From the NCBI GenBank assembly GCA_016182495.1, contig JACPGK010000019.1, positions 1 to 63,545 on the forward strand: a stretch of 63,545 nt of DNA, in the 5' to 3' direction. This DNA is from Candidatus Kerfeldbacteria bacterium. Its GTDB lineage: Bacteria; Patescibacteriota; Patescibacteriia; UBA9570. A program made the position numbers and the translations under genes. Shown here one piece after another: positions 2,320 to 63,545 of this stretch. The notes under the pieces are model-generated. The model was not told where the DNA came from. It saw only the letters and a program-made list of their open reading frames with translations, and did no database searches. Positions within the stretch are counted from its first letter, which is position 1. Every line of letters starts with the position of its first letter.

Positions 2320-2343
2320 GAATATATCGTCGAAAAAGAGCAT

Positions 2344-3273: not shown

Positions 3274-3293
3274 AATGCAACACTTAATCAAGT

Positions 3294-3518: not shown

Positions 3519-3626
3519 CAGTAAATTGCCGTTTGCTACACTGATTGATATGTCAGATGATTTTTTTGTTCCAATTGAGATTATTGACCCAACCGCTTAA
3601 TCTGGCTAAGGATATGGTAGTATAAT

Positions 3627-5267: not shown

Positions 5268-5268
5268 T

Positions 5269-6904: not shown

Positions 6905-6933
6905 TTGACCAAAAGCAAATTTGTTAGTATATA
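6905..6933 (+). promoter_or_regulatory. candidate sigma70-type promoter (TTGACC-17 nt-TATATA)
   Basis: ttgacc at 6905-6910, a 17-nt spacer, then tatata at 6928-6933, only ~8 nt before ATG 6942. This suggests a leaderless or near-leaderless transcript. Confidence 0.35.
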
Positions 6934-6941
6934 TAATTGAT

Positions 6942-7175
6942 ATGAACCCAATCGAAGCCAGTCAGGTACGTCGTCGGCCAATTTCTCAACCAGATCAGCG
7001 ACCACATGCGCCATCACCAATACACCCGGAGGATGATCAGTTTGATCCAGAAAAGGATAAAATTTGGAGAGAACAGCGTGGTTTACCAAAACGGAATTAT
7101 GGCGACGATAATCCCAATCAGCCCCCGCGTGGAGCTGAAGAAGTGGATTATTCTTTTGGAAAAAACGTCGATTAA
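6942..7175 (+). CDS. small Pro/Asp/Gln-rich, probably disordered protein (hypothetical)
   Basis: 77 aa from ATG 6942 (MNPIEASQVRRRPISQPDQRPHAPSPIHPEDDQFDPEKD..). No SD sequence; low-complexity composition. Confidence 0.4.
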   Translation: MNPIEASQVRRRPISQPDQRPHAPSPIHPEDDQFDPEKDKIWREQRGLPKRNYGDDNPNQPPRGAEEVDYSFGKNVD

Positions 7176-7182
7176 ATTAAAC

Positions 7183-9384: not shown

Positions 9385-9415
9385 AAAAAATCGTTTCTGT
9401 CAAATTTTTATGCTG

Positions 9416-10225
9416 CTAGCTGGAAGTTCGACAGACAATCACTCGATCAAGTCCAGCTAAATCTTTACTGACAACCACGCTAGCTTTTGGAAAATAATGT
9501 CGACATAATCGGTTGACTCGCATAGCTTGACGATAACCAATTTCAAATATAATACTGCCGCTAGGCTTAAGATAATAGTGAGCTTGTTGCAGAATGCGCT
9601 CAATAATTTTGGTAGAGTTTCGGCCGGCAGTTAAAGCCAAGCGTGGCTCAAACTGTAGTTGGCGATGGTTAGCTTCTGTGCCAGTCAGGTAGGGCGGATT
9701 TGACACAATCATATCAAGCTGATGCTTGAAGTACTGTGGCAAGGCGGCTAAAGCATTGCCACAATAGCTGGGAATAGTCACCTGGTGTGTACGGGCATTG
9801 CGTCGCAGCACACGTAAAGCCGCTGGCGAAATATCTGTGGCTAGTACACGCGTAGTTGGTAATAATTTTTTTAAGACAATGGCAATATTACCACTACCGG
9901 TACCAATATCAGCTATAGTGTGAATTGGTTGATTGACATTACCACAGTATTGTACAACGGTATCAACCAGTAGTTCAGTATCAGGCCGTGGTATTAAAAC
10001 ATCACGATTCACGATAAAATTTAATCCGTAAAATTCTTTATGGCCGGTAATATAGGCTACCGGTTCGTTTTGCTCACGACGGTGCAGATAGTTGAGCAAT
10101 TTTTTCGCTTGCCGAGTGGTCAAAGTATACTCTGGATGAGCATATAAAAATTCTCGTGGCTGCTTGATAACGGAGGCTAATAACACATCAACATCTAATC
10201 GCCGCCCAGTATCACCAATGGTCAT
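9416..10225 (-). CDS. prmC: release-factor glutamine N5-methyltransferase
   Basis: 269 aa with the SAM motif [13 protein letters not shown] and catalytic IVSNPPYL. Its start overlaps the prfA stop (ATGA). Confidence 0.9.
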
Positions 10226-11295
10226 AAATTCTGCAACAGCATTTTGTAATCTTCTTCGCGCAAGGCTGTTAGTAGTGGCTGGAGGTTGCCTTCGAGAATC
10301 GGATCAATATTATTCCAACTTTGTTTAATGCGATGATCGGTAATACGATCTTGGGGAAAATTATAGGTGCGAATTTTTTCTGAACGATCACCCGTGCCTA
10401 TTTGCGATCGTCGAGCGGCTGAATTTTTTTTCAAATCGGCCTCGCGTTGCATTTCAAACAAACGTGATTGTAATACTTTAAGGGCCTTAGCTTTATTTTT
10501 GTGTTGCGATTTTTCATCCTGACAGGTTACAATCATACCACTGGGTAAATGAGTAATACGCACAGCTGAATCGGTGGTATTAACACTTTGACCACCATGA
10601 CCCCCCGATCGAAACACATCGATGCGTATATCATTCGGATCAATGGTAATATCTATTGCGTCGGCTTCAGGCAGTACCGCTACGGTAACAGTTGAAGTAT
10701 GAATGCGACCAGATTTTTCGGTGGTCGGTACTCGCTGTACTCGGTGAACGCCCGATTCATATTTCATACAGGAGTAAACATTATTTCCGGTAATTTCGAA
10801 AATGATTTCTTTAAAACCGTCTAAATCGCTATGATTGGCGCTTAATAAACTGGTGCGCCAACCTTGGGTTTCAGCATAGCGACTATACATGCGGAACAAC
10901 TCGGCAGCAAATAAGGCGGCTTCATCACCACCGGCGCCGGCCCGAATTTCTACAATGATATCTTTACGATCAAGCGGATCTTTTGGCAGCAGCGTAATTT
11001 CAATGGCTCGAACACAAGCAGCTTGATCAGTATGCAGACGATCTAATTCAGTTTGAGCCAGTTGCTGTAATTCAACATCGCTGTCATCATGAGCAGTACG
11101 CTCGGCTTCGGTTAAGGCGCGTTCAATAGTGAGCAAGCGATCAAATAGCACTATTTTTTCTTTGAGTTCATCGTACTCTTGGGCATATTTTTTAAAGCGC
11201 GTTTGATCTTGAATCAAAGTTGGTTGCTGTAGTTCCTGCTCAAGCTGGGCAAAACGCTGGCGCAGTTGTTCAATTTTGAGACGGATAGAATCCAT
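10222..11295 (-). CDS. prfA: peptide chain release factor 1
   Basis: GGQ motif ([13 protein letters not shown]) and the RF1-type tripeptide region [17 protein letters not shown]. The likely start is [11 protein letters not shown] at 11295; the track start 11355 adds an implausible leader. Confidence 0.93.
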
Positions 11296-11361
11296 AAATA
11301 ATATAGTGTGAACATAAAACTCCTGCTCAATGCAACAGGAGTACGTGATGATCAAACCTAG

Positions 11362-37248: not shown

Positions 37249-39555
37249 ATGATGAAACGATTTGCTTTTAGCAGCTGGCTGGCTGCTGTAACAGTTATTT
37301 TTTTGCCAGTCACAGTTCAAGCAGTAACCGCCATAACTGATACCACCCTCATTCAACTCACTGGCCAAACGGCCGATCAAGCCGGTCGATCAGTAGCCAC
37401 CGGTGATTTGAATGGTGATGGTTTTGATGATTTGATTATTGGGGCGATTGATGCAACTAATCCTGGTAGTGTGTATATTATCTATGGCTCAACTGCCGTG
37501 CTCACAACCCAAACTTTATCAGCCACTGCCCCAGTAGTTGAATTAACTGGCGCTTCAGCCACGGATGAGTTGGGTATTTCCTTAGCTACCGGCGATATTA
37601 ACGGTGATGGTTATGACGATGTACTAGTAGGCGCCGATTTAGATGATGGTGCTGCCATTAATGCTGGTACTTTTTATTTAATTTATGGTAGTACTACGCA
37701 ATTAACTTCTGGCACCATTGCTGCGGTCAGCGCTAAATTCACCGGTGAAACCACGGTTAGTGGTAACGTTGGCATATCAGTAGCCGCTGGCGATGTAAAT
37801 AATGATGGCTATGATGATATGGTGATTGGGGCGAACAAAAATAACGATACTGGCGCAATTGCTGGCGCAGTGTTATTGATTTATGGCCAATCAACTCAAT
37901 TTACTTCGGCTACTTTAACGGCGGCAACTGTTGTACAATTTAGTGGCAAAGCAAGTTCAGATTTAACTGGAACCATCGTGCGCACTGGTGATGTTAATAA
38001 CGATGATTTTGCTGATATTCTGATAAGCGCACCACAAAATGTTGATTGTGCTGTTGGGGGAAGTAGTAAATGTGGCACAGTATTTTTAATGTATGGCCAA
38101 TCTGCTGCTTTAACTAGTACAACAATATCAAGTTCAACCATTGCGTTCCGGGGAGAGGCCGCCAACGATACGTTTGGCAGCATTGCTACCGGCGATATTA
38201 ACGGCGATGGCTATGACGATGTAATGATGGGTGCCAGCGCTAATGATGATGGCGGCAGTGATGCTGGCGCTGCTTATATTACCTATGGTCAATCAGCCAC
38301 TCTGGCAACTACCAGTGCCTCTACGTTAACTGAATCAACTGGCATAGCAGCTGGCGATAATGCCGGTGGCCCTGGTTTAATGATGGCCGATTTGAGCAAC
38401 GATGGTTATGCTGATTTATTGGTGGGAGCGCACAAGAGCGATGATGGTTCAACTGATGGTGGGGCATTATTTGTCACCTATGGCTCTGCTAGCACCTTTA
38501 CTGGTACTGCTTCATTAGGTGTGGCTTCAGCCTTTGAAATTACCGGAACTAGTGCTAGTGAAAATTTAGGTCGAGCTGCCACCACTGGTGATTTGAATGG
38601 CGATGGTTTGTTGGAATTAATTATCGGTGCGCCAGCCTATTCATCTGGAGTTGGTGCAGTGTATGTTGGTTATGTTAGTATGGATGCCGATAACGATGGT
38701 GAATTAGCCTCAACTGGGTTAGTGTTTACCGGCACCGACTGTAACGACGCCGATGCCACCGTGACAGCCAACCAAACCTACTATGCCGATAGTGATGCCG
38801 ATACTCTGGGTGACCCAGTCGTTACCACTATGGTGTGCAGCAGCACCGCCCCAGCTGGCTACGTCGCCAATGCCACCGATACCAACGATACCATCCCAAA
38901 TAATGGGGTAGAAATAGGCAACGATAGCATTGATAACGATGGTGATGGTAGTATTGATGAAGCCAATACCACTACGGAAAATGGAGCTCACCCCTACTAC
39001 AGTACTCTGGATAGTACCGATACCGCAGTTGTTGCTACGGCAATCACTGCTATTACCGCTACCACGGATGGATTAGTGCAAGTAACCTATGCCGATAACT
39101 CGGTGTACACCTTTAGCGCCTTTACCGGAGGAGATGACGCTCTAGCAGTGGCCCAGTACCAAGACACTGGCTATGTGTTGGCGTTGCAGTCAACCGGTAA
39201 AAACCTAGCCTTATTAAATGTTCTCACTGGCGTGGTTGATACAACGGTAACGCTATCCAAAACCAAACGCTATAGTGTCAATTCCCTCAAACTGCTCGAT
39301 GTCCGTAACGATGGTGCCGTGGAAGCCGTTATCACCTCACGCAGTAAAGCCAAAGTCTTACTCTCCATTGTCAAAGTGAATCTGGCTGGCACCACCCTAA
39401 AAAAATACGATAGTGTTACTGCCACCAATAAAAGTGTCACCCCCTCAAAAACCACTGTCAAGAAGAAAACTCTGTTATTAAAGTCGAAGAAGGGTAAAGC
39501 GTTATTGACCTACAACGTCACCAAGCAGTACGCTTTGAAATTAGTGAGTAAATAG
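37249..39555 (+). CDS. secreted FG-GAP (integrin-alpha-like) repeat protein with basic C-terminal beta-module
   Basis: 768 aa with a signal peptide and at least 7 repeats of ..GD(L/I/V)NGDG(F/Y)DD(L/V)(I/L/V/M)(I/V/M)GA.. followed by G..Y(I/L)IYG. Confidence 0.85.
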   Translation: MMKRFAFSSWLAAVTVIFLPVTVQAVTAITDTTLIQLTGQTADQAGRSVATGDLNGDGFDDLIIGAIDATNPGSVYIIYGSTAVLTTQTLSATAPVVELTGASATDELGISLATGDINGDGYDDVLVGADLDDGAAINAGTFYLIYGSTTQLTSGTIAAVSAKFTGETTVSGNVGISVAAGDVNNDGYDDMVIGANKNNDTGAIAGAVLLIYGQSTQFTSATLTAATVVQFSGKASSDLTGTIVRTGDVNNDDFADILISAPQNVDCAVGGSSKCGTVFLMYGQSAALTSTTISSSTIAFRGEAANDTFGSIATGDINGDGYDDVMMGASANDDGGSDAGAAYITYGQSATLATTSASTLTESTGIAAGDNAGGPGLMMADLSNDGYADLLVGAHKSDDGSTDGGALFVTYGSASTFTGTASLGVASAFEITGTSASENLGRAATTGDLNGDGLLELIIGAPAYSSGVGAVYVGYVSMDADNDGELASTGLVFTGTDCNDADATVTANQTYYADSDADTLGDPVVTTMVCSSTAPAGYVANATDTNDTIPNNGVEIGNDSIDNDGDGSIDEANTTTENGAHPYYSTLDSTDTAVVATAITAITATTDGLVQVTYADNSVYTFSAFTGGDDALAVAQYQDTGYVLALQSTGKNLALLNVLTGVVDTTVTLSKTKRYSVNSLKLLDVRNDGAVEAVITSRSKAKVLLSIVKVNLAGTTLKKYDSVTATNKSVTPSKTTVKKKTLLLKSKKGKALLTYNVTKQYALKLVSK

Positions 39556-50969: not shown

Positions 50970-51950
50970 CTATTTTTTCAACAATTGTAACACTAACCGC
51001 ACCATGCGTTGTTTATTTTTCGGATCACTTTCAGCAATCAGCAATGTTAGAACCGTTAACGCTGCTGGGGTTATTTTAGATGTATTGAGTAACCGAGCTT
51101 TTTTCAAAAACCAAATAAACGCATACGCCCCACTACGCTTATTACCATCCACAAACGGATGATTTTTGATCATAAAATATAACAGATGAGCTGCTTTTTC
51201 TTCAATCGTTGGATAAACCGCTTTACCACCAAACGATTGCATTACATTTCCAATAATACCTTCAATACTGCCTGTATTTTTTTCTAAAGCAAAAATATCC
51301 GTAGTCTCGCCTTTGCGGATTAACTCCTGTTTTAACAACGCTAAAGCAGTGATGAACTCGTTGGCATTCAGTTTTACAGATTTTTTGCTGGCACCAACAT
51401 CAGCTAATGCGTCTCTATCATAAGCATCCAATGAAAGCCAAGTATCAGCAAAAGTTGAAATTAATTCTAAAACGTCCCCATGAGAAATATTAGATTCCAC
51501 TGGCAATAACTGCTTGATGTTTTCTATAGCTTTTTGAAATTCTGTGTAGTTATGTTTAATGCTTGTTTTGTTGATTGTAAATCCTTTCGTGATGTGCTCA
51601 CGCAAAACTTTAGTTGCCCATTTACGAAATTCTATGGCGCGTTTAGAATTTGTACGATAGCCAAGCGCAAGAATAATATCTAAATTATAAAATTGTACTT
51701 GATAAATTTTTCCATCATTTCCAGTATGTGCAAAATTTGCACATACTGAACGTTCATCTAGTTCCTTATCTTTTAAGATATTTCTAATATGCTTAGTGAC
51801 TACCGAACGCTCAATATTAAAAATATCCGCAATCTGTGTCTGGTTTGCCCAAATCGTATCTTTCTGAACATCACCCTTCAGCTTAATCGCACCAGTTTTA
51901 GTTTGATAAATCACTACCTGATTGTTTGGGAATTTCTTTGGCTTCATATC
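50970..51950 (-). CDS. RhuM-like N-terminal domain fused to Fic/DOC domain
   Basis: From MKPKKFPNNQVVIYQTKTGAIKLKGDVQKDTIWANQTQIADIF..YNLDIILALGYRTNSKRAIEFRKWATKVL (RhuM pattern). The C-terminal Fic motif is HPFVDGNKRSG. Confidence 0.85.
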   Translation of the reverse strand, partial: DMKPKKFPNNQVVIYQTKTGAIKLKGDVQKDTIWANQTQIADIFNIERSVVTKHIRNILKDKELDERSVCANFAHTGNDGKIYQVQFYNLDIILALGYRTNSKRAIEFRKWATKVLREHITKGFTINKTSIKHNYTEFQKAIENIKQLLPVESNISHGDVLELISTFADTWLSLDAYDRDALADVGASKKSVKLNANEFITALALLKQELIRKGETTDIFALEKNTGSIEGIIGNVMQSFGGKAVYPTIEEKAAHLLYFMIKNHPFVDGNKRSGAYAFIWFLKKARLLNTSKITPAALTVLTLLIAESDPKNKQRMVRLVLQLLKK

Positions 51951-52056
51951 GATACATTGTACTCTAAAAATAGTGGCTTGACTACGATATAACTGCATCG
52001 CAAAATGCTACTAAGACTAAATTAGTTCGAAAGTCGTTTACTTGGCAGTCCTTGTC

Positions 52057-52370: not shown

Positions 52371-55352
52371 ATGCCTCGTAGTCCGGATATTGTTGGTTTT
52401 GGTCGCGGAAGAAGTGTGGATCAACGCGGACGACTACGTCAAGAAATTGATGAGTCTGGGCATGAGAAATTGGAAGATGATCAAGAGCATGGAGAAAAAG
52501 AAATCTTGTTTGCGCGTGGCTTAGAATTATTCGGCCGAGGTTTAGATAGAGATGATTTTCAGACGGGAGATAATTTTGCGTCGGCCTATAATCATATTAT
52601 CGAGGTGCTAGACCCCAAATTATTGGCTGAGCTTGATTTTTGGGAACGCATTTTTGCTCAATATGAAAAATGTATTAGCGCGGTAGGAGTCTTTGCAGCA
52701 TTGCCTCACCATATTCAGGATAATCCAGATATTCAAGCATACTTTTTTTCTAGGCCACATTTTAACACTCCTTATCTGCCACGCACGGTTATGGAGAGAG
52801 TAGATGCGGACTTAGTGGTACCGAAATGGTTAGAGCTGGGAGTTAGTGAGCATACTTTTTCTCAAGCACCCTGGAAACATTTTGATCAAGATCAAAAACG
52901 TCAATACGTTACAACAGCACTCGAAGCCAGTATTCCTATACGAGTGCTCGATGGCACACGCCGTGAATTTATTGATGCCATACCGAAAGATGAATGGAAC
53001 GGCATTGCACGAGAACGTTACCAAGCCGATCCAGATGCGATAGCTGTGTTGGTTAAAGACGATTTTGATCGCGCTACCGAACTTTTTTCAATGGAAGATT
53101 TAAGAACTTCTTTAGAGCGCCCGGTTGAACGATGGGGAGCTGTTGGCATCGCTGCACCGCCACAATTTGCAGGATTGTCCCTACCCTTACTGCGTCGTCT
53201 TGGTTTTGAGGAAGACAAAATAGATACCTGGAAGAGCATAGTCGCACAACCAAATAGCAACCTTGATAGTGGTTTTCATGATTTTGAAAAGATGACATCA
53301 GCCGACCGTGATTGGATTCTAGGACAGTTAGAAACCCGCGCTCAAGTACTGGATGCGGGCTATCAAGCATTTGTCGGCGAGACATTACCAAAATTATTAC
53401 GTAAATTAGCGCCAGCGGCCGTAGAGAAAACGCTTGAGACCCTGCAGCCTCTTTTACGTGAGTGGAATTTACCGACTAGAGATGTTGCAGATGGTATTTT
53501 GAAGCCTACCATAGAGAGTCAAGGAGCGTCGGCTTTTCGCACCTATGAGATACTCGCAGAAAGAGTAGATTGTTTTGATGCTGGAGATATTACTTTGCTG
53601 AATCTATTATGTCCAAACAAAGAGTCAGCCAAGGTTTTAAGAAACCTCATGTCAAAAACTGGAGCTCGTTTTCAAGATTTCATGGCTTTTTATTTGGATA
53701 CTCGGTTTGGTAGAGACCGCGCCGGTGTATTAAAAGGCGCGGGCGTCCCTTTGTCAGATGAAAAGAATATCGTCATTTATATTGACTCACGTTTACCCTG
53801 GACACCCCCATATTTTAGAGAGTTTGAAACTCGTATTGCGTCTGGCAAGAATTCCAGGGTGGTTGCCGAGGAGTTAGGTCGAGAAGTTCAGACACAGATT
53901 CAGCAAATTCAAGCTGGCAAGTGGCCAGAAGACGGATTAGATGACAATAAACTAGGATTGCTATCACACGTTTTTCCTCCAGCACTCGGGGTATCGCGTA
54001 ATGAATATGCCCGTCTGGTTAGGCGCCGCGAAGATAGGCAAGATGATATTCCAGTAGAGTGGGACGCGTTGCAAGGTAAAATAATCTCGTTTCCAGTTGG
54101 CAAGTGGGAATTACAAGCTGACGCACAATTTGAAACGGCACCATGGAGTCGACTAAGTGAAGTAGTAGCAGATGTAAATGGCAGAAAAATTATTCCTGAG
54201 GATAGAGAAACGCAGCAAACCAATGAACTTGTACTCGGTCCTAATCGCATTATTGAGATCGGTCGTGAATTTGCGCGAATACTCACTGATAATAGCGCTA
54301 GCGCCACAAAGAATGCTTTACGCAACGGCTATGCTGTCTTTTTATTGAGGGGGGGGTCCAAGCTGCCTGAGTTTGTATCTGGCCGTGAGGAGGCTGTCCG
54401 CGTATTTGAATGGTCCAAAGATGCACTGCGGGATACCGTGGACCACGCCTTGCGCATGTATCGCGAAGCCAATGCAGCCTCATTTGATGATGATATAGCC
54501 CAGGCAACCAAGCGAGAAGTACCGCCTCGGGCTAAACGTGGCATTGTGAAGGGAATTTTGGGTATTCTAAAACACGAGACTATGGCCAGAGAGGAGAAAT
54601 CACAACGTATCAGGACGATCCTGGCTACTGCTGGCGTAGCGCTTGAGGGTGATATTGTGGGACAGCTACAACCAACTGGTGATCAGTCAGTATTGACGGA
54701 AGAAGGGATTACATTATCGTTAGATCAGTTATTGGCCGGAGCACAGACTAAAACTGCCGAAGCTGGAAAGTTATCTTCTATTATCGTGCAAAAATTACTT
54801 GGCGCAGAGGCTGAGACAATGGAAAAAGAACTTGACAAATGGACCTTTGTGGAAGGAGCTGAAGGAGGAGAGCAACGCACTATCCGATTTGAAATTACAA
54901 AACGTAAACTCCATGCAGTTGCTGGATTAAATAGTGGGGTCTGTGTGGCAGTTGACGACCAGTTATGGAATAAACCTGACTTTGCAAACGTGGTCATGTT
55001 TGCAGATGATGATATTGCCCATGGTGGTATGCATTTTGAGATTGTTCAAGATGGTGGCAAAAAGTATCTTTCTTTACCAGGAATAAACCCAAGTCTCACC
55101 TTATTACGCGAAGTTGACCCGCAACGTGTAATTCAAATGATGTTGGAGTATGCCAAAGCTTGTGCGAAAGCGATTGGTGCAATTGGAGTGCTGATTCCAA
55201 CCAATACAATTATTCTCTCCAACCGTGAAGAACTTCACCCGATTGTAAAAGAATTAAAATTACCGACGCATTCACTAACCCAGCCACATCAGTTTTCGTA
55301 TTCACCGTTTGCCTATTCCTGGCAAGATGGATATTTCGTGAAGGCAGCCTAG
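52371..55352 (+). CDS. 993-aa orphan protein, no recognisable domain
   Basis: Single long ORF. G+C is visibly higher than the neighbours. Its last ~47 codons lie inside the right IR arm. Confidence 0.8.
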   Translation: MPRSPDIVGFGRGRSVDQRGRLRQEIDESGHEKLEDDQEHGEKEILFARGLELFGRGLDRDDFQTGDNFASAYNHIIEVLDPKLLAELDFWERIFAQYEKCISAVGVFAALPHHIQDNPDIQAYFFSRPHFNTPYLPRTVMERVDADLVVPKWLELGVSEHTFSQAPWKHFDQDQKRQYVTTALEASIPIRVLDGTRREFIDAIPKDEWNGIARERYQADPDAIAVLVKDDFDRATELFSMEDLRTSLERPVERWGAVGIAAPPQFAGLSLPLLRRLGFEEDKIDTWKSIVAQPNSNLDSGFHDFEKMTSADRDWILGQLETRAQVLDAGYQAFVGETLPKLLRKLAPAAVEKTLETLQPLLREWNLPTRDVADGILKPTIESQGASAFRTYEILAERVDCFDAGDITLLNLLCPNKESAKVLRNLMSKTGARFQDFMAFYLDTRFGRDRAGVLKGAGVPLSDEKNIVIYIDSRLPWTPPYFREFETRIASGKNSRVVAEELGREVQTQIQQIQAGKWPEDGLDDNKLGLLSHVFPPALGVSRNEYARLVRRREDRQDDIPVEWDALQGKIISFPVGKWELQADAQFETAPWSRLSEVVADVNGRKIIPEDRETQQTNELVLGPNRIIEIGREFARILTDNSASATKNALRNGYAVFLLRGGSKLPEFVSGREEAVRVFEWSKDALRDTVDHALRMYREANAASFDDDIAQATKREVPPRAKRGIVKGILGILKHETMAREEKSQRIRTILATAGVALEGDIVGQLQPTGDQSVLTEEGITLSLDQLLAGAQTKTAEAGKLSSIIVQKLLGAEAETMEKELDKWTFVEGAEGGEQRTIRFEITKRKLHAVAGLNSGVCVAVDDQLWNKPDFANVVMFADDDIAHGGMHFEIVQDGGKKYLSLPGINPSLTLLREVDPQRVIQMMLEYAKACAKAIGAIGVLIPTNTIILSNREELHPIVKELKLPTHSLTQPHQFSYSPFAYSWQDGYFVKAA

Positions 55353-55465: not shown

Positions 55466-55614
55466 ATAGAAGTACATTGTGAAAATTGGTGACCTCCCGC
55501 GCCGCAGCCGCACGCGCGTTTGGCCAATAGCTCCCAGGCATTTTGCCAAACGAGCCCCACCTTCCGCTCGCGCAAAAGGAGGTTCGGCGCCGGAACGGCG
55601 CAAACAAACCTCAA
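55405..55614 (-). pseudogene. inverted 3'-terminal remnant of a serine recombinase gene
   Basis: The minus-strand frame reads ..NLLLRERKVGLVWQNAWELLAKRACGCGAGGH.., versus ..NLLLRERKVGLAWQNAWELLAKRACGCGARGH.. at the end of the intact gene. There is no upstream catalytic region. Confidence 0.65.
55498..55586. repeat. GC-rich 89-bp inverted repeat, left copy
   Basis: Its reverse complement equals 57006-57094 except for 2 adjacent substitutions (tt vs cc). Confidence 0.9.
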
Positions 55615-55663: not shown

Positions 55664-57220
55664 ATGAAATATTTCATCTACGCTAGAAAATCCACAGACG
55701 AGGCCAACCGGCAATTACTGTCTATTGAGGCACAAATTGCTGAACTACAAGAATTGGCAACTAAAGAAAGGTTACAAGTAATAGAAATTCTTACTGAATC
55801 CCGAACAGCCAAAGAACCCGGTCGGCCGATCTTTAACGATCTCTTGCGGCGTATTGAAAACGGTGAAGCTGCCGGAATACTGTCGTGGCATCCTGATAGA
55901 CTGGCGCGTAATTCTGTTGACGGCGGGAAGATTATTTATTTGGTGGATACCGGCAAGCTTCAAGCACTTAAATTTTCGACATTCTGGTTTGAGAATACGC
56001 CGCAAGGCAAGTTTATGTTAAATATCGCTTTTGGGCAGTCAAAGTATTACGTTGATAATCTTTCAGAAAACGTGAAGCGAGGTTTGCGTCAGAAAGTGCG
56101 CCGTGGAATATTGCCCGGTCGTGCGCCGCTTGGGTACCTAAATGACAAAGCCAATCATACTGTTATTCCGGATCAGCAAAAATTCAAACTTGTGCAAAAA
56201 CTTTTTGAACTGTACGCAACTGGCGACTATTCACTGCAAGCTGTTAGTCATGCTATTGCCGAGTTAGGTCTAGTTAGCCCAAGCGGCAAACCGCTGGCTA
56301 TTTCCAACACCCAGACTATTTTGCAAAATCCATTTTATTACGGCGCACTAAGGTTCAACAGCGAATTGTACGAAGGCAAACACGAGCCAGCGATTACCAA
56401 GCAAATGTATGACCAAGTGCAAGCGGTCATGCAACAAAAGGCTAAACCAATGAAGAAGCATTCGTACTTTGCTTTTCGAGGATTATTATTGTGCGGTGAG
56501 TGCGGGGGAAGCATTACATCTGAACGCCAAAAAAGACACGCCTATTATCGCTGCACAAAGAAACTGGGTAAATGTATGCAACCGTATATTCGCGAGGAAC
56601 TTTTGGCTGACCAGCTCAAAGCTTTTGTGCAGCAAGTGTCGATAGATGACCAACTGGCTAGTAAAATGTCCGCCTACCTCAAAGAACAGGCAAATAAAGA
56701 TAACTCCTCCGCACTCACCGTTACCGAAAAACTCGAAAAGCAAATAACTGAAAGTAAAACCAAGCTTGACCGCTTGCTAGACGCTCATCTGGAAGGCGCG
56801 ATTGATAAAGAAACGTATACTACCAAAAAGAATCAACTGTTGAATCAAAAGATTGAGTGTGAACAAAAATTACAAACTTTCAAGCAAACATGTAATCGCT
56901 GGCTCGAACTTTCGTTGCAATTAATTTCTGACGCAAACCTAGCCAAAAAAATACCTTTGACTGGAAATTTCGAAGAACTTCGTAATTTCATTAAAAAGAT
57001 TGGCTCGAACCTCCTTTTGCGCGAGCGGAAGGTGGGGCTCGCCTGGCAAAATGCCTGGGAGCTATTGGCCAAACGCGCGTGCGGCTGCGGCGCGCGCGGG
57101 CACGAATTGGACACTTGTCTTGGATGGCAGTCGTGGCGTGACGTTATTAGAACTATAGTAGATAACTACTTAGAATTCAAGTTTGCTGCAAGCTATATTC
57201 AGACTTACTTTACTTCGTAG
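55664..57220 (+). CDS. large serine recombinase (resolvase catalytic domain + recombinase domain + zinc ribbon + coiled coil)
   Basis: 518 aa. The N-terminus MKYFIYARKSTDEANRQLLSIEAQ.. carries the catalytic Ser. Also ..SWHPDRLARN.., the zinc ribbon LLCGECGGSITSERQKRHAYYRCTK, and a long C-terminal coiled coil. Confidence 0.92.
   Translation: MKYFIYARKSTDEANRQLLSIEAQIAELQELATKERLQVIEILTESRTAKEPGRPIFNDLLRRIENGEAAGILSWHPDRLARNSVDGGKIIYLVDTGKLQALKFSTFWFENTPQGKFMLNIAFGQSKYYVDNLSENVKRGLRQKVRRGILPGRAPLGYLNDKANHTVIPDQQKFKLVQKLFELYATGDYSLQAVSHAIAELGLVSPSGKPLAISNTQTILQNPFYYGALRFNSELYEGKHEPAITKQMYDQVQAVMQQKAKPMKKHSYFAFRGLLLCGECGGSITSERQKRHAYYRCTKKLGKCMQPYIREELLADQLKAFVQQVSIDDQLASKMSAYLKEQANKDNSSALTVTEKLEKQITESKTKLDRLLDAHLEGAIDKETYTTKKNQLLNQKIECEQKLQTFKQTCNRWLELSLQLISDANLAKKIPLTGNFEELRNFIKKIGSNLLLRERKVGLAWQNAWELLAKRACGCGARGHELDTCLGWQSWRDVIRTIVDNYLEFKFAASYIQTYFTS
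57006..57094. repeat. GC-rich 89-bp inverted repeat, right copy (inside the 3' end of the recombinase gene)
   Basis: See 55498-55586. Confidence 0.9.
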
Positions 57221-57891
57221 ACAGCATACAGATTTTCAGCATCTGTATCAGTTACTATTTTATAGTTTTTTTGATCAATGGTTACTTCAACAATAAACTG
57301 TCTGTTTTGTGAATCTTCTTTAGCGTATGCAAAATTAATACGAGGAAATATTTTGAAACCGTCATTCTCTTTTGCCAAATTTATAGCCTTTCTTACGCGA
57401 TCCTTTTTATTTTCTTCCCATTTTTTACGATCCGAGAAATCAATAGTATATGTTGTAATAATAAATATTGTTAAAACAAAGGCTAGAATATAGAAAACAG
57501 CCTGAATAAAACCAAGATTATCAGAAGTGCTATTATTACTGTTTGATCCTATCCAAATAAATCCTAGTGCCGCTGCAAATACGAATATAACCATTATATT
57601 TGCAATTGTTCTCAAGGGTATCATTTTTTTTATTCTGTGAATTTCACCATCACTATATTTTCTTTTTTTAAACGTAGGGATCATTACACTGTGGTAACTG
57701 ATGCTGATAAATATAGCAAAAACACTTAATAAAAATGTCGTTACCGTTGTAAAGAAAATAACGTTTTGGTCAATAAATATTCCACTTATTTGTTCAGGGA
57801 ACCATTTAAACCCGAACTGTAAAAGCGGAACTACCGTAACAATGAATGCGCCGAGGCTTTTTAATACATTGAGGATTGATTCCTTATTCAT
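57205..57891 (-). CDS. 4-TM membrane protein with C-terminal soluble domain (candidate effector of a defence-like operon)
   Basis: 228 aa with four hydrophobic helices, then ..DRKKWEENKKDRVRKAINLAKENDGFKIFPRINFAYAKEDSQNRQFIVEVTIDQ... Its 3' end overlaps the recombinase 3' end by 16 nt (convergent). Confidence 0.7.
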   Translation of the reverse strand: MNKESILNVLKSLGAFIVTVVPLLQFGFKWFPEQISGIFIDQNVIFFTTVTTFLLSVFAIFISISYHSVMIPTFKKRKYSDGEIHRIKKMIPLRTIANIMVIFVFAAALGFIWIGSNSNNSTSDNLGFIQAVFYILAFVLTIFIITTYTIDFSDRKKWEENKKDRVRKAINLAKENDGFKIFPRINFAYAKEDSQNRQFIVEVTIDQKNYKIVTDTDAENLYAVYEVK

Positions 57892-57922
57892 ATTGGTATT
57901 TTATAGAATAGGTATAAGAAAA

Positions 57923-58855
57923 TTATTTTATTCTAGCCTTAATGACATCCATAACGATCTCTTTTAATTCCGCAGCATTATTATAGCTGTAGCATTGGTA
58001 GTGCTTAGTATAAAAATCTAGAGGAGATTTATCTGCATTTACTTCTTTATTGTAAACATAAATCGTATCTATACCAAGTGCTTGTGCAAAACCAGCTTCA
58101 TAGAATACACTTGCCCTTCCATTCGTTAAGTCAACAACCACAAATCTGCTATTTCGTATTTCACCTAAAGCTTTATCAATAATTTTTTCAGAAAAATGGT
58201 CACCCCATAAGCATGTTGGAATATAATCGGATTCTTGGATAGCATTTTTTATTGCATTTATTGAAGAATCCATTACGTCATCAAACCATGCAGCAATGAA
58301 AGCATTATTGCTAGCTTTAGAGTTATGCTGGTTTAAATTCCAGGCCGAAGCTGTTAAGCTAATAGAATAAGGCGTGTCGTCAAGTGTAAGTACGCTGCCT
58401 ATATTTATTAGGCCGCTCTCTTTTAAAAAAAATATTAAAGCCCTAAATTCTTCGCTATTATGAGCATAGGCTAGTGAATAGTCGTGATTGAATGATGGTT
58501 TTAAAGTCTTACCAAAATATGTAGATTTTTCTTTTAACCTTATCAAAAGTTTATTTGCTTTTGCTTCAATATTTGATAAATCAGGCACTAAGTAATGTTT
58601 TAAATAATCATCAATATTCTCAGTAACAAACCTTGGAGGCTTTTCACCCAGTTCTTTTAGTTCACGTGCCACACCAGACAAAATATAGCCTACACTATCA
58701 ATTTTGTTTAAAGTATCCTTATCTGCCGTGCAGTTACCTGATATTTCAAAATCTCCACAACATGGGCAGATTACATAGTAACCATACCATTTTGTTTCAG
58801 ATCGGATTTCTATTTTCTCGTTTTTACACAGAGGGCATTGATTTATTGTATCCAT
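57923..58855 (-). CDS. Zn-ribbon + central (wHTH-like) + C-terminal nucleoside 2-deoxyribosyltransferase/TIR-like Rossmann domain protein
   Basis: 310 aa. N-terminus: CPLCKNEKIE...ICPCCGDFEIS. C-terminus: NAFIAAWFDD....I..AI.......C........KIIDKALGEIRNSRFVVVDLTNGRASVFYEAGFAQALGIDTIYVY, which follows the FIA.-F ... D-x-T ... V-x-Y-E-x-G-x-A pattern of the NDT-like/TIR-like flavodoxin-fold family. Confidence 0.7.
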   Translation of the reverse strand: MDTINQCPLCKNEKIEIRSETKWYGYYVICPCCGDFEISGNCTADKDTLNKIDSVGYILSGVARELKELGEKPPRFVTENIDDYLKHYLVPDLSNIEAKANKLLIRLKEKSTYFGKTLKPSFNHDYSLAYAHNSEEFRALIFFLKESGLINIGSVLTLDDTPYSISLTASAWNLNQHNSKASNNAFIAAWFDDVMDSSINAIKNAIQESDYIPTCLWGDHFSEKIIDKALGEIRNSRFVVVDLTNGRASVFYEAGFAQALGIDTIYVYNKEVNADKSPLDFYTKHYQCYSYNNAAELKEIVMDVIKARIK

Positions 58856-58872
58856 AGCATCGTTGATATATT

Positions 58873-59439
58873 TTAATCAGATTCAACACCAAGAAGTTTT
58901 CTAAATTCATTTTCAAGTTTTTCTTTTGCTTTTGGTACATCGCTACTTATCTTATTCCATGCTTGATCCCAAAAATCTAATACCTCGTTACTACTTTTGT
59001 CTGGTTCATGATCTTTGCGTTTAAAAAGTTTGAATGACTCCTTGAGTGAAAGCGTGATAGTGTCTAATAGAACGCACAGTTCTTTTTGAAAGAAAATTTT
59101 ATTTTGATCGTAATACTCAATAAAATCGTTAGCCTCTTCAACTGCTTTATTCATTTTATCTTCAATCTTTTGTCCATCAAATTGAACGGGGCTAATCAAA
59201 GACTGCATAGATGTTATGGATTTTGATAGTTTACCATACAAATTTTTGATTACTTCGGCTCGTTCTGAATGTAGCCTATCAAATTTTATTTTATGCTCTT
59301 CAGCCAATTTTAATACCTCAAGTTTATATTTTTCAAAATCCTTGTTAAGCCAGTGTTTAATAATAGACCTAATTAAAAACGCTAGTATACCTGAGCCTAT
59401 GAAAAAATATAAAATATTTTTGATTACTTCTAAAGTCAT
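58873..59439 (-). CDS. N-terminally TM-anchored coiled-coil protein (hypothetical)
   Basis: 188 aa with one TM helix (ILYFFIGSGILAFLIRSII), then a helical, charged sequence. Its start overlaps the upstream stop (ATGA). Confidence 0.65.
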   Translation of the reverse strand: MTLEVIKNILYFFIGSGILAFLIRSIIKHWLNKDFEKYKLEVLKLAEEHKIKFDRLHSERAEVIKNLYGKLSKSITSMQSLISPVQFDGQKIEDKMNKAVEEANDFIEYYDQNKIFFQKELCVLLDTITLSLKESFKLFKRKDHEPDKSSNEVLDFWDQAWNKISSDVPKAKEKLENEFRKLLGVESD

Positions 59440-60413
59440 ATATTTGTTGTAATACGCTTGATACCATCTGGGAATAAAGATACGAGAGAACTGACTTTTA
59501 TGCCTCCTTTTTTTCTTTGCATTTCGTCAGCTGATATTTTCCAATCAACTATGTTGCCCTCAGGCTTGCCCAGCAAATCTATATTGATTTTAATTTTAAT
59601 GTCAGTAATTTTTTGCCTTGTCTCAGGGTGTATAACACCTAGATCATTTGTGTATTGTCTGGCTTGAAGAAAGGCATACAAATCATCAATGTTGTCTAAT
59701 CGTTGTTCTTGCGCTATTTCAATCAAGTTTTTTGGTGGAAAGAATATAAGTAGCTGTACATATTTTGCTATTTTTTTACCTCTATTTCGTATAAATAATC
59801 TTAGGTCAATTTCTTCACTCCATCCATTTTCTGAAATTATTAATTCTTTACTCCGATTCAGTGGTTCAACCTCAAGACTTAAAACTGGGGAAAGTCTTTT
59901 TCCGAAAAATAATTCCAATACAAAGTGTTCCATTGGCTTTGATTCTGTTCCTATTCGTCTATAGTATCTAAAATCCTGAAGATTTTGGTGAGGAGCAGAC
60001 TCACTTTTGGGTATATAAAGTATCAAATACTTTTTTGTTCCTGACTCAACGATGTGTTTACTAATACCATTAATATTTGGTTGAATTCCAGAGGCGATTA
60101 CTCTATCAATAGTTTCAATATTTAATGGATCAATTGATTCTAGTTGATTAGGCTTAGTTTTATCACTAGGGTCAGTTGCGATCCCATAGATGATTACACC
60201 ACCTCCTGAGTTGGCCATTGCGCTAATATCCTTCTTGATTTCTTTTTTGTCAGAGTCGGTGAAGTTACGAGAAGCTGTTTTATATTCTAAAATCTCTGAT
60301 TCACGGATGCTACTATCAATAAGACCTTGCAAGGCAGCAATGCCACCACTAGTAACTTGTCTAAACAAATTTTGTACTTGCTCCATAATTTGCTTATTAT
60401 CCCTAAAAATCAC
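59436..60413 (-). CDS. AlbA_2 (Schlafen-like) DNA/RNA-binding domain protein
   Basis: 325 aa: ..SIRESEILEYKTASRNFTDSDKKEIKKDISAMANSGGGVIIYGIATD.....YLILYIPKSESAPHQ....FRYYRRIGTESKPM matches the AlbA_2 pattern E..lEfK...i.k.i.AfaN..GG.l.iGv ... yiR.gs. Confidence 0.75.
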   Translation of the reverse strand: MIFRDNKQIMEQVQNLFRQVTSGGIAALQGLIDSSIRESEILEYKTASRNFTDSDKKEIKKDISAMANSGGGVIIYGIATDPSDKTKPNQLESIDPLNIETIDRVIASGIQPNINGISKHIVESGTKKYLILYIPKSESAPHQNLQDFRYYRRIGTESKPMEHFVLELFFGKRLSPVLSLEVEPLNRSKELIISENGWSEEIDLRLFIRNRGKKIAKYVQLLIFFPPKNLIEIAQEQRLDNIDDLYAFLQARQYTNDLGVIHPETRQKITDIKIKINIDLLGKPEGNIVDWKISADEMQRKKGGIKVSSLVSLFPDGIKRITTNI

Positions 60414-60496
60414 TAAATAGTAAAGGCATAGAAATTGACATCATTAGAGATCAGTAATACAACTAAGCAATAAGATAGATATAAGAAACTAGTAGT

Positions 60497-61444
60497 ATGA
60501 TGGAGAAAACATCATTGGCTGATGCTTGCAATTTAAAGGAAGGCTACCTGAAAAATGTATACTTTGAAGCAAAAGATAAAGAGGTGTTTGTCGTGAGTCC
60601 AAATGAATTTGTGTATGGCATGGTTTTAAAAAACTATGAGCAGAATCAGGTACTTAGGAAAAAAATTAGAGATTTTTCAGGAGAAAGAAAAATTAAATTC
60701 ATTTCACTAGAGAAGATAAATTCTAACTATGCATCACCGGATTATATAGTGGGCATGTGCATTGCAGCATTTGACCATTACCCTCAGGATATGGTCGGTA
60801 TTAGAATACAATCATTGTTTGAAACCATGACTAATCCTACTTTTTGGGATGAAGTAGAAGTAGTAAGAAAAAAGTGGGGTATACCACCGAAACCGAAATA
60901 TGATGACCATCAGAAAATTGATCGCATCATTCGCAATAAGAGTTACGAATCACATCTTCTCTACCCATATCGTCAATGGTTAAGTAATCGTAAACGGTGG
61001 TATGGCAATAGGAAAATTGAAGAAGAGAAAATTGTAATCACTGCCTTATATCAGGCTTACGAAAAACTGTTGGATAAAATCTCTTTATCATCTGAAGATG
61101 TTGAAGACCCACTAGACCCATGGCAGGAAGAAATTACAGAACTGGCACGACGGTATAATTTGCGTGGAGCTAATTTTGATACAATCCTTGATTACATTGT
61201 TAGATACCATACCTTACCAGAAGGCATGGTAAATAATTTTCCGGATGATGAATTTACCACACCAACAAAGAAGCATGTACTCAGGGATGCTATTATACGT
61301 TATTTATTGCTATTTAAGGCTGTAAAAGACCCAAACAAAATTAAATCTGCACTGAGACAATACGCAAAAATGAATGTTACAGTGGGAAATATTAAAGTTA
61401 TTTGCACACGGATTAGAAAAGGGTATCGTCTGAAGAGTAAATAA
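60497..61444 (+). CDS. hypothetical protein (315 aa), mobile-element backbone
   Basis: Long ORF divergent from the defence-like operon; very AT-rich; no recognised domain. Confidence 0.65.
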   Translation: MMEKTSLADACNLKEGYLKNVYFEAKDKEVFVVSPNEFVYGMVLKNYEQNQVLRKKIRDFSGERKIKFISLEKINSNYASPDYIVGMCIAAFDHYPQDMVGIRIQSLFETMTNPTFWDEVEVVRKKWGIPPKPKYDDHQKIDRIIRNKSYESHLLYPYRQWLSNRKRWYGNRKIEEEKIVITALYQAYEKLLDKISLSSEDVEDPLDPWQEEITELARRYNLRGANFDTILDYIVRYHTLPEGMVNNFPDDEFTTPTKKHVLRDAIIRYLLLFKAVKDPNKIKSALRQYAKMNVTVGNIKVICTRIRKGYRLKSK

Positions 61445-61510
61445 TTACACGAGATAACCTATTCGCTGTAATTTTTTTTGATACCTAAAATGTAGGTACA
61501 TATTTTTATT

Positions 61511-61627
61511 ATGCCTACAGATATTAATAAGCATTATCCAGCAAGAGAAGAAACAGATGTCATTGAGCAGTTCACTGCTGAGTTAGCCGATATTTTATAC
61601 GAACAGATAATAAACATTACTGAATAA
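61511..61627 (+). CDS. candidate small acidic protein (38 aa)
   Basis: Not in the track: MPTDINKHYPAREETDVIEQFTAELADILYEQIINITE*. Its stop lies 1 nt before the next ATG, which suggests real, coupled coding. Confidence 0.4.
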   Translation: MPTDINKHYPAREETDVIEQFTAELADILYEQIINITE

Positions 61628-61628
61628 T

Positions 61629-61871
61629 ATGCCCAAACAAAACGAATTGCCAATTGATTTTATGGAGCTAGCAGCCGTGCTAATGACCCTAGACTACAAA
61701 TTAATACGCGTTGATAAAACTAACCAAAAACATTGCATCTTTTATTTGGAGGAGCATGAAGATTCATATCAACTTATTACGCGATATTTTAATTCTGAAC
61801 TGACCGTTGACCCTAAGCGATTATTTATTAACCTACGGACGCTTAAGTATATGATACACAGTCAATACTAA
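61629..61871 (+). CDS. small protein, possibly DUF5659-like
   Basis: 80 aa: ..LPIDFMELAAVLMTLDYKLIRVDKTNQKHCIFYLEE.... The family assignment is from memory of the pattern only. Confidence 0.5.
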   Translation: MPKQNELPIDFMELAAVLMTLDYKLIRVDKTNQKHCIFYLEEHEDSYQLITRYFNSELTVDPKRLFINLRTLKYMIHSQY

Positions 61872-61890
61872 GGTACAAAAAAATAAGAAG

Positions 61891-62589
61891 ATGAACGAAA
61901 TAAGAAACACAGAGAATGGTAAACCGTTTTGTTGGCAATCAAAGCCAATCTTACGTCTTATTAGGGAAACCTACACTCGTAAACGATTATGTACAGCTAT
62001 CGCTATTTATACCGTGCTAACAGAACTATCTAGTAACCAAAACACACAGGCTTATTGCCAAGCTTATTATATTGATATTGCAAATCATATGGGCAAATCA
62101 TCATCAACAGCCAAACGATATTTAAATGAATTTGTTATTATGGGCATTGTAAGAAAGCAACACCGATATCAAAAAAATAATCCAAAGATGCTCGCTCGTA
62201 CCAAATGGTTTTTATTAAGCTTACCAGTTCAACATAAAACACCTACCTCAGTGCATAATAATAACAAGCCCCCTAGTCAAAATAATGAGCCAGTAATAGA
62301 AGAACATACTAAGAATAATCTTTATAAGAAGGGAGAGTCATCAATTAAAGAAAAGACAATACAAGAGCTCGTAAACTGGTTTAGTAACGCACGACGCGTT
62401 GATATCGCTACCCGCGAGTATGCCCAAAATCTTATAGGAAAATACGGTATTGAGAAAGTTAAACGTTCTATGGATATTCACGGTAGCCAGGGCTACGGCA
62501 ATGAAATAGATGCATTTCACAAACATCTAAAGGATGACTTGATTGGCTGTGGCTGTAATGTACCTCTCTCTGCATTTTATCCAAGGTAG
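61891..62589 (+). CDS. winged-helix DNA-binding protein (replication/regulatory type), hypothetical
   Basis: 232 aa: ..IAIYTVLTELSSNQ......IDIANHMGKSSSTAKRYLNEFVIMGIVRKQ. (wHTH-like), followed by an Asn/Lys-rich linker and a C-terminal helical domain. Confidence 0.6.
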   Translation: MNEIRNTENGKPFCWQSKPILRLIRETYTRKRLCTAIAIYTVLTELSSNQNTQAYCQAYYIDIANHMGKSSSTAKRYLNEFVIMGIVRKQHRYQKNNPKMLARTKWFLLSLPVQHKTPTSVHNNNKPPSQNNEPVIEEHTKNNLYKKGESSIKEKTIQELVNWFSNARRVDIATREYAQNLIGKYGIEKVKRSMDIHGSQGYGNEIDAFHKHLKDDLIGCGCNVPLSAFYPR

Positions 62590-62595
62590 TAAGGA

Positions 62596-62617
62596 TACCG
62601 TTAAATTTTGGGTGCTT
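62596..62617. repeat. IS left terminal inverted repeat (IRL) taccgttaaattttgggtgctt
   Basis: 21/22 match to the reverse complement of 228-249; begins 7 nt after the stop of the preceding gene. Confidence 0.75.
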
Positions 62618-62682
62618 AAAACATTGTCTTCTTGGCTAAGGTCTGCTAGATTGAACCACTTTAACTGGTTAAACGATCTCAA

Positions 62683-63545
62683 TATGTTAAAAAAAACATC
62701 CTCACTGTCCGACCTGTAACAGTGCGTTCACAATAAAACGCGGTAGTCGCCGTGGAATAAATAGATATTTATGTAAGAGCTGTCATGGCTCTTTTTCAGT
62801 TGACCATGGCCGCAAAGACGAACTGTTGTGGATCCCACACATCGATGGTATCCCGTTTCGCAAACTCGGCGATGAACATGGCCTGTCTGGTGTACAAGCC
62901 TACAACCGTGTCTTTGCTGAATTAGCGCAGCTACCAAAAGTCATCGACATCACCAAACAGTATTGCCGATACACCTCTGGTATCCTCATCATCGATGGAA
63001 AATATATTAAAGTGAAAGGGTTCAAACACAAAATACCGTGGCTCTATGCCGTCGATTACGAAACCCACGACATCCTGTTTGGCATGGTTGCTGAAGCGGA
63101 AGATATACAAACCTTTGAAGCGTTCTTTACCATTCTCAAAGGATTGAATTACCCTTTACGTGTTGTCGTGGCCGACGACCGTTCTAGCTTGCCCCTAGGG
63201 CTTAAACGCATCTATCCGGAGATACCGGTGCAACTGTGCCAGAATCACTACTTAGAAAATATTCGACAACAACTCCATATCCGTACTGATGCCCTGCACC
63301 AGCATTTTTTTAATTCCCTGAAACTCCATGTGTTTGCTGAGTATGAAAACGATACCAAACTCAATAATGCTTTGTATCATGTCTTCACAGAACGGTGTGA
63401 AGGGTTGGTAGTTCGTCAAAAAATTGTCCTCGAGATTTCCAAACGACGCCACGAACTGTTTGCCTACACAACGATTCCAAACTGTCCAAACAACACTAAC
63501 TTAATTGAACTCTTCAATTCACATTTTAATGCACGATTACGGACA
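62683..63545 (+). CDS. DDE transposase (N-terminal Zn ribbon + MULE-like catalytic domain), 3'-partial at the window edge; start separated from the main frame by a +1 shift in an A8 run
   Basis: The main frame from 62690 reads KKHPHCPTCNSAFTIKRGSRRGINRYLCKSCHGSF...LIIDGKYIKVKG...VVVADDRSSLPLGLKRIYPEIPVQLCQNHYLENI...NNTNLIELFNSHFNARLRT. It has no start codon in that frame. ATG 62683 (MLKK) is in the +1-shifted frame across aaaaaaaa at 62688-62695. Confidence 0.8.

Follow-up and report, generated by a model that had tools for sequence, protein, structure and literature searches.

Four genes packed end to end in a bacterial mobile element raise the question of whether they work as one system. 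We asked it of a contig of Candidatus Kerfeldbacteria bacterium (JACPGK010000019.1, assembly GCA_016182495.1), which was analysed over its whole length of 63,545 nt and is called the window below. Four co-directional open reading frames (ORFs) on its minus strand, here g1 to g4, had been described in an initial annotation as a candidate novel anti-phage operon, in which a Schlafen-like sensor, a nucleotide enzyme and membrane effectors would act together. Our answer is that the locus is probably a defence islet, small and mosaic, on a low-GC mobile element, and that it consists of independent modules rather than of one four-component system. The four genes are as follows:

59436..60386, minus strand: g1, predicted Schlafen/AlbA_2 nuclease domain (~29-153) and C-terminal immunoglobulin (Ig)-like beta-sandwich (~165-310), from Pfam, AlphaFold2 (AF2) and Foldseek
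58873..59439, minus strand: g2, 188 aa, a single transmembrane (TM) helix at the N-terminus, soluble part helical; shares 4 nt with the end of g1
57923..58855, minus strand: g3, zinc ribbon, helical middle and C-terminal Rossmann domain (184-310), from family profiles, AF2, Foldseek and hhalign
57205..57891, minus strand: g4, 228 aa, four hydrophobic TM segments and a ~75-aa soluble tail, from hydropathy

The layout is as first described. The ORFs run from 60413 to 59436 (g1), 59439 to 58873 (g2), 58855 to 57923 (g3) and 57891 to 57205 (g4), with an ATGA overlap of 4 nt between g1 and g2, a gap of 17 nt between g2 and g3 and one of 31 nt between g3 and g4. The AT-richness that had been noticed also stands: G+C is 32.4% in the cluster vs 42.4% in window positions 1-55663, and the contiguous stretch 57221-63545 has 34.9% vs 42.4% for the remaining window. 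Because each gene has homologues elsewhere, we take all four to be real genes and not chance ORFs. A promoter and terminator scan found no terminator-like sites within the cluster; promoter-like sites did not exceed the shuffled expectation there, and the scan was uninformative. Co-transcription of the four genes is plausible from their spacing.

Recurrence of the four families

The evidence that carries our answer is the company kept by relatives of each gene. We gathered 85 loci around g3 relatives, 80 around g2 relatives, three each around relatives of g1 and g4, and two annotated plasmid loci, and searched all of them by tblastn and with family hidden Markov models. The g2-family loci were collected with a 10-sequence alignment, as a metagenome scan with the single g2 sequence gave nothing.

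Outside the window, the quartet was found only on L092 and L093, two short contigs from sister samples, and these are not independent occurrences because their DNA is 100% identical to that of the window. Among 88 non-identical loci of the g3 family, a g4 relative was present at none, a g2 relative at one (L122, ~0.9 kb away) and a generic AlbA_2 gene at two (5-6 kb away). The 80 g2-family loci include one with a g3 relative and two with an AlbA_2 protein, which is adjacent in L158 and at 2.6 kb in L098. The neighbours of three g1 relatives are unrelated (DnaB and a HAD hydrolase; efflux pump genes; a type ISP fragment and a TIR-TPR gene), and the g1 homologues are solo genes in these differing contexts. 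Neither of the two g4 homologues has a g3 homologue upstream, and a DUF4145 gene follows one of them.

When the neighbours were clustered, the most widespread family, N6-methyltransferase/type IIG enzymes, reached 7 of 82 g3 loci, and at the g2 loci no family exceeded 4 of 78. Since no quartet, triple or consistent pair recurs over the loci anchored on g1, g2, g3 or g4, we regard the quartet as a one-off juxtaposition; co-occurrence of the four families across genomes, which a four-gene system would lead one to expect, was not found beyond the two identical contigs. In addition, PADLOC, NCBIfam and PHROGs scans of g1-g4 and five neighbouring genes gave no system-level match.

The Schlafen protein g1 and the zinc-ribbon protein g3

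The longest ORF of g1 opens at a GTG at 60413, and an alternative ATG at 60386 gives a protein of 316 aa. The ATG is most likely the true start, because the database gene call has 316 aa and the N-termini of homologues align there. Twelve homologues were found, at 37-48% identity. The Pfam model PF04326 is covered over its whole length with E=7.4e-16 (59.2 bits vs a cut-off of 25.3 bits), in agreement with the Schlafen/AlbA_2 call made at the outset, and a PDB sequence search matched the C-lobe of SLFN11 and SLFN8 weakly. The segment RESEILEYK constitutes an Ex4ExK motif (E29, E34 and K36 in the 316-aa numbering), and all three residues are kept in 10 of the 10 homologues that cover the site.

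The C-terminal half of g1, previously listed as unknown, is predicted to be an Ig-like beta-sandwich. In an AF2 model made with 11 family members (pLDDT 86.9), residues ~165-310 are all-beta, and the top Foldseek matches of the model are the ectodomains of integrins alphaV, alphaX and alphaIIb, with E down to 6e-7. The N-terminal half matches the bacterial AlbA_2 protein 3lmm.

A class of proteins with this make-up has recently been described. Prokaryotic Schlafen (pSlfn) defence proteins were classified into 55 fusion architectures, and their catalytic motif was defined as Ex4(E/D)xK (PMC13056530; Perez Taboada et al., Nat Microbiol 2026). RorSlfn5, of the pSlfn5 type, is a verified single-gene tRNase defence, and the pSlfn5 Ig-like domain senses a T5 tail assembly chaperone, which unleashes tRNA cleavage (PMC13056530). 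Like RorSlfn5, g1 has a PF04326 nuclease domain with the Ex4(E/D)xK motif and a C-terminal half predicted to be an Ig-like beta-sandwich, structurally closest to integrin ectodomains, and its family occurs as a solo gene. Unlike RorSlfn5, in which the motif lies at residues 15-20, g1 carries an extra N-terminal helix of ~24 residues, and unlike pSlfn5 it is translationally coupled to a membrane-protein gene, g2. We consider g1 best filed as a divergent new member of the pSlfn5 architecture, placed there by its modelled architecture and its motif; it adds an environmental member to this newly described class. By analogy with the characterised RorSlfn5, the C-terminal Ig-like sensor of g1 would bind a phage protein and thereby switch on the N-terminal Ex4ExK RNase, which would cut tRNA and lower phage yield.

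In g3, a CxxC...CxxC ribbon (Cys7, 10, 30 and 33) is followed by a middle region that is helical and weakly matches winged-helix-like folds, and by the Rossmann domain, in which D242, R247 and E253 are invariant or nearly so across the family; the E253 column of the family alignment holds Glu in 32 of 32 residues. We found ~30 close homologues and 156 genome matches; in a collection with one genome per species the family is thus present at 156 sites or more, with a range that runs from Patescibacteria and Proteobacteria to archaea. Against Pfam, g3 itself has weak matches to Lar_restr_allev (E=0.0018) and Nuc_deoxyrib_tr (E=0.024), and its 15.2 bits lie below the 28.8-bit gathering threshold of PF05014. 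The same PF05014 model is matched by 31 of 33 family members at E<=0.05, with a best E of 5e-6. g3 belongs to the superfamily of nucleoside 2-deoxyribosyltransferases (NDTs) and DNPH1 (clan Nribosyltransf), and not demonstrably to the curated PF05014 family.

PDB sequence searches with g3 and with its family profile returned nothing meaningful, and only fold comparison worked. With the AF2 model (pLDDT 85) as query, Foldseek finds DNPH1/Rcl in the PDB (4fyh, TM-target 0.75, rmsd 3.4), as well as NDT 8qc0 and the CMP hydrolases BcmB and MilB, and it also matches TIR domains (SPARTA TIR, TcpB and PdTIR); a viral library gave matches to NDT and CMP hydrolase. Once the human DNPH1 query sequence had been confirmed against PDB chains, hhalign paired g3 VVVDLTNGRASVFYEAG with DNPH1 VVAEVTQPSLGVGYELG, placing E253 on E104, with a weak statistic (E=0.023). 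We take E104 to be the nucleophile Glu of DNPH1 (YEL motif). The title of PDB entry 8qhr refers to a glycosyl-enzyme intermediate. Profile searches and fold comparison thus uphold both domain assignments of the initial annotation, AlbA_2 in g1 and a zinc ribbon with an NDT/TIR-like domain in g3.

In the specialised libraries, g3 matches phrog_16139 with E=2e-22, and g3-like domains occur in phages (Staphylococcus phages). In PADLOC-DB v2 there is a partial and weak match to a TIR effector (E=5e-4), and 1 of the 33 family members matches DUF4062 and 2 of 33 match CAP12/Pycsar TIR, all weakly.

The genomic context of close g3 homologues (41-50% identity to g3) points to defence. One adjoins a type IIG restriction-modification (RM) gene (L001) and another a UvrD-PDDEXK helicase-nuclease gene (L180). 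In L004 the homologue has UvrB upstream and DUF2726 and AAA_13 genes downstream (6949-9887 of that locus). In L181 it is divergent to an RVT_1 reverse transcriptase (RT) gene (2181-4689), with a DUF2726 gene ~2 kb downstream (6908-7456), and in L179 a methyltransferase and an SNF2 helicase lie 2.4-5 kb downstream. In the wider family, immediate neighbours include a type I restriction endonuclease, DrmC, DRT UG9, DRT UG21 and HEC-09. On a Hydrogenimonas plasmid, a homologue precedes ATPase and HNH nuclease genes; homologues on Bacillus mycoides megaplasmids are solo and bear the RefSeq name "nucleoside 2-deoxyribosyltransferase". As a side observation, L004 and L181, which are unrelated loci, both have a DUF2726 gene in the vicinity of the g3 homologue, in one case together with AAA_13.

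Since its close homologues sit alone beside RM, defence RT and DUF2726/AAA_13 genes, we read g3 as a putative abortive-infection protein that would act by itself, through cleavage of nucleotides or NAD+. When triggered, the zinc-ribbon/helical sensor would activate the NDT/DNPH1/TIR-like N-glycosidase, which would hydrolyse a nucleotide or NAD+ by means of E253, and this hydrolysis would deprive the phage or the host cell of an essential pool. We observe the fold, a conserved Glu and solo occurrence near defence genes; the substrate and trigger are what we infer from them. As housekeeping genes are common next to distant homologues, a defence role is not proven for the family as a whole. The defence flavour of the locus, as first proposed, is nevertheless upheld by the neighbours of close g3 homologues and by the Schlafen type of g1.

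Several known systems offer comparisons for g3. The effector of the type II retron Ec86, in which E106 is the catalytic residue, joins an NDT-like to a winged helix-turn-helix (wHTH) domain and depletes adenine derivatives (10.1101/2023.08.16.553469). g3 resembles this Ec86/Retron-Eco1 effector in pairing an NDT-like Rossmann domain that has a putative catalytic Glu with a helical/winged-helix module of a nucleic-acid-binding type, and by analogy it would be expected to deplete a nucleotide pool; it differs in its reversed domain order (sensor N-terminal, NDT C-terminal) and its added zinc ribbon. DNPH1/Rcl and the NDTs of PF05014 provide the best fold matches, and the motif VVxDLT...YE(A/L)G aligns on the DNPH1 Glu. 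Unlike these enzymes, g3 has ~180 extra N-terminal residues (zinc ribbon and helical domain), and its setting is mobile elements and defence islands instead of salvage operons. Swarozyc/DUF4062 is a precedent for a stand-alone TIR-like NADase (10.64898/2026.05.01.722283), whereas Thoeris types are defined by recurrent adjacency of TIR and effector genes, with TM effectors among the new types (10.64898/2025.12.03.692087). Like both, g3 couples an accessory domain to a TIR/NDT-superfamily catalytic domain with a conserved Glu in defence islands, but it lacks the recurrent effector partner of Thoeris.

Near g3, Pfam found no RT domain among the window neighbours, PADLOC gave no retron match and Rfam returned only tRNAs. 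A retron or CBASS/Pycsar context was rejected, there being no RT, cyclase or non-coding RNA (ncRNA). By context g3 is neither a retron effector nor a Thoeris ThsB, since it has no RT or ncRNA nearby and no recurrent partner. If confirmed, the g3 family would take NDT-type nucleotide-cleaving effectors beyond retrons, to a format in which they stand alone. In the present analysis this zinc-ribbon/NDT-like family stands out as widespread and unnamed, and as one found alongside RM, defence RT and DUF2726/AAA_13 genes.

The membrane proteins g2 and g4 and the question of partnership

Hydropathy supports the membrane calls made earlier for g2, which has a TM helix at residues ~5-28, and for g4, with TM segments at ~5-28, 42-72, 89-118 and 124-153 ahead of the soluble tail. 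g4 is a near-orphan with two homologues among 5.8 billion proteins and has no family match above threshold in Pfam, PADLOC, NCBIfam or PHROGs. The g2 family comprises 2093 cluster representatives at E<=1e-3, nearly all of ~160-270 aa and typically ~190 aa, with conserved motifs LHxxRA...NRIFF...EFRxxLGV; its members have no Pfam family in common and no Pfam model, and PADLOC-DB v2 gives g2 a partial and weak QatB match (E=8e-4). The family ranges from archaea (Haloferax pHM100) to cyanobacterial plasmids, and where isolates carry a relative, it is annotated as a "hypothetical protein" and lies on a plasmid (Haloferax, Bacillus, Synechococcus).

The neighbours of the 80 g2-family loci (L094-L173) vary. 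A co-directional gene lies upstream at 48 of 59 loci, within 60 nt in 13 of these, and PDB sequence searches with the tightly coupled upstream partners of three g2 relatives identified TPR, a trypsin-/HtrA-like protease and a HAD phosphatase, with no shared theme. A constant association, in which g2 would follow a Schlafen or an NDT gene, was considered and rejected (2/80 and 1/80 loci). The family thus appears as a very large and uncharacterised group of small membrane-anchored proteins that ride in variable operons. For g2 and g4, which have no demonstrable link to g1 or g3, accessory, exclusion or unrelated roles would be possible.

Several points weigh against our reading of the locus as a set of independent modules. 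The genes are packed like a true operon, including the ATGA overlap, and no internal terminator was detected. L122 has a g3 homologue ~0.9 kb upstream of a g2 homologue and L158 a shorter AlbA_2 protein 340 nt upstream of one, and these pairings are far more than chance placement of genes would produce with families this rare. No significant PADLOC model match was found for any of the four genes, and none at all for g1 and g4. The likeness of g1 to RorSlfn5 is one of described architecture and motif and not of aligned sequence, and housekeeping genes are numerous beside distant g3 homologues. We read the pairings in L122 and L158 as a shared genomic niche in variable islands, not as obligate partnership, and the tight spacing of g1-g4 most likely reflects compaction of cargo under one promoter.

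If the four genes were one anti-phage system, g1 would sense the phage, g3 would make or destroy a nucleotide, and g2 and g4 would disrupt the membrane. The operon-like packing, the shared low G+C, component types used in known systems and the isolated pairings just mentioned all speak for such a scheme, but over ~170 loci no quartet, triple or consistent pair recurs, proteins of the g1 type act as single genes (PMC13056530) and both relatives of g4 are without g3. We consider it improbable, and the proposal of one integrated sensor, enzyme and membrane effector is not sustained. As to the accompanying remark that the four-gene combination was not recognised as a described system, PADLOC has no system match, and g1 fits the published single-gene pSlfn5 type. 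Smaller partnerships fare little differently. In a two-gene Schlafen system, g2 would anchor, restrain or be the effector partner of the g1 nuclease to which it is coupled. The stop/start overlap of the two genes, the AlbA_2 protein encoded directly before a g2 homologue in L158, next to an integrase, and the co-directional gene that g2 relatives usually have upstream are all in keeping with it. We nonetheless find it unlikely, since a g2 homologue is downstream in 0 of 3 g1-family loci with context, the genes coupled tightly to g2 relatives on their upstream side encode unrelated proteins, and pSlfn5 works as a single gene (PMC13056530). Still less credible is a Thoeris-like pair, in which a TIR/NDT-like g3 would make a nucleotide signal that opens the 4-TM protein g4. 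Such a pair could draw on the 31-nt gap, the TIR fold matches of g3, the two family members that match CAP12/Pycsar TIR and the TM effectors of new Thoeris types (10.64898/2025.12.03.692087). The recurrent adjacency that defines Thoeris is missing, with a g4 relative at 0 of 88 g3 loci and g4 relatives that have no upstream g3; the domain scores as NDT/DNPH1 rather than TIR, and solo TIR-like proteins are normally depleting effectors and not signal makers (10.64898/2025.12.03.692087).

The cargo might also have nothing to do with defence and might either serve the element, through nucleotide metabolism, anti-defence, exclusion or entry, or consist of neutral hitch-hikers. g3-like domains are present in phages (phrog_16139, Staphylococcus phages), NDT-family enzymes also act in salvage and DNA hypermodification, housekeeping genes are common next to distant g3 relatives, and 30% of pSlfn genes have no defence neighbour (PMC13056530). 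We think this rather unlikely, given that g1 has the intact catalytic motif and the predicted sensor architecture of a verified defence protein and that close g3 homologues are found repeatedly among RM genes, defence RTs and DUF2726/AAA_13 genes. Beyond these alternatives, and returning to independent modules as the preferred reading, we tentatively entertain a more specific version that we rate below even chances, in which the g3 family is an undescribed stand-alone anti-phage system that would abort infection by cutting a nucleotide or NAD+ with E253 and the g2 family a generic membrane partner of varied conflict genes. The juxtaposition of g1-g4 in this element could then be an incipient composite system. 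For discovery from sequence alone the lesson is one of caution, as the cargo genes of a mobile element can be packed like an operon and so pass for a multi-gene system.

The mobile element and other features of the window

The genes around the cluster place it in a mobile element, as first proposed, with a recombinase on one side and a replication module on the other. The features concerned are:

55484..55586, no strand: left arm of a 103-nt inverted repeat, a 94% complementary pair that brackets the recombinase gene
55664..57220, plus strand: large serine recombinase (Pfam Resolvase E=2.8e-19, Recombinase E=1e-14, Zn_ribbon_recom E=6.3e-11)
57006..57108, no strand: right arm of the 103-nt inverted repeat, in the recombinase ORF tail and ~100 nt from the g4 stop
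60497..61444, plus strand: unannotated divergent ORF of 315 aa within the same low-GC block, also on the identical contig L092
61629-61871, plus strand: DUF5659 protein of the replication module (PF18903, E=4.7e-6)
61891-62589, plus strand: Rep/DnaD-like wHTH protein of the replication module (PHROG replication-initiation families, E=3e-8)

The g1-g4 block thus sits between the replication module and the large serine recombinase. Cargo hot spots for defence genes in integrative elements have a similar design, with a low-GC block flanked by replication genes and, at its other end, by a recombinase; unlike in such hot spots, the recombinase here is bracketed by 103-nt inverted repeats, which is unusual. 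The 315-aa ORF has no family match in four libraries (Pfam, PADLOC, NCBIfam and PHROGs).

A second element is informative about the slot itself. The Logan contig L003 (SRR21359985, 1-12945) carries a DUF5659 gene that is 48% identical to that of the window, together with a primase Zn-ribbon protein, AAA_25 and two tyrosine integrases. The corresponding cargo slot of L003 is occupied by a g3 homologue whose companions are other genes, of 169 aa and 240 aa, with no similarity to g1, g2 or g4. We take this as evidence for a mix-and-match cargo hot spot.

The recombinase is CcrB/XisF-like in NCBIfam and matches the phrog_95 integrase in PHROGs with E=3e-78. The XisF likeness prompted the idea of a cyanobacterial origin, which was rejected because the HIP1 motif is wholly absent. 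Its conserved protein ends near residue 448 (~57007), and the rest of the ORF is read-through into the repeat; three close relatives (P0208-P0210) share the protein as far as residue 448, beyond which each takes a different frame through the repeat. The convergent 16-nt overlap with g4, which had been pointed out before, does exist, but because the relatives diverge after residue 448 we consider both the ORF tail and the overlap incidental. L093 ends at the repeat edge (57006) and L092 inside the repeat (57065), and the repeat may be a recombination site or an element resembling a miniature inverted-repeat transposable element.

A second inverted repeat (52045-52291/55212-55465) has a 136-nt core at 93% and weaker flanking arms, and brackets a 993-aa ORF (52371-55352) for which Pfam, NCBIfam, PADLOC and PHROGs gave no match. 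Its right arm overlaps the 3' end of this ORF and abuts the recombinase repeat. Just upstream of the 993-aa gene, at 50970-51998 on the minus strand, lies a gene for a RhuM-family and Fic/DOC protein, another conflict-type gene.

Elsewhere in the window, positions 1-52 and 63494-63545 are 100% identical, and the contig may be circular (63,493 bp) or repeat-ended on this account. Positions 1-1000 have 53.6% G+C, compared with ~42% elsewhere, and contain long overlapping ORFs on both strands with no Pfam or Rfam match. Adjacent genes at 3627-5267 and 5236-6888 encode paralog-like proteins of ~550 aa with an N-terminal treble-clef zinc finger (zf_Tbcl) and are otherwise unannotated. The contig also carries a class-I peptide release factor gene (10222-11355) and three tRNA genes (22704, 31381 and 34753). 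Five direct repeats of 63 nt, diverged from one another, lie in the gene of an FG-GAP repeat protein (37249-39555) and are ordinary repeat-domain coding sequence.

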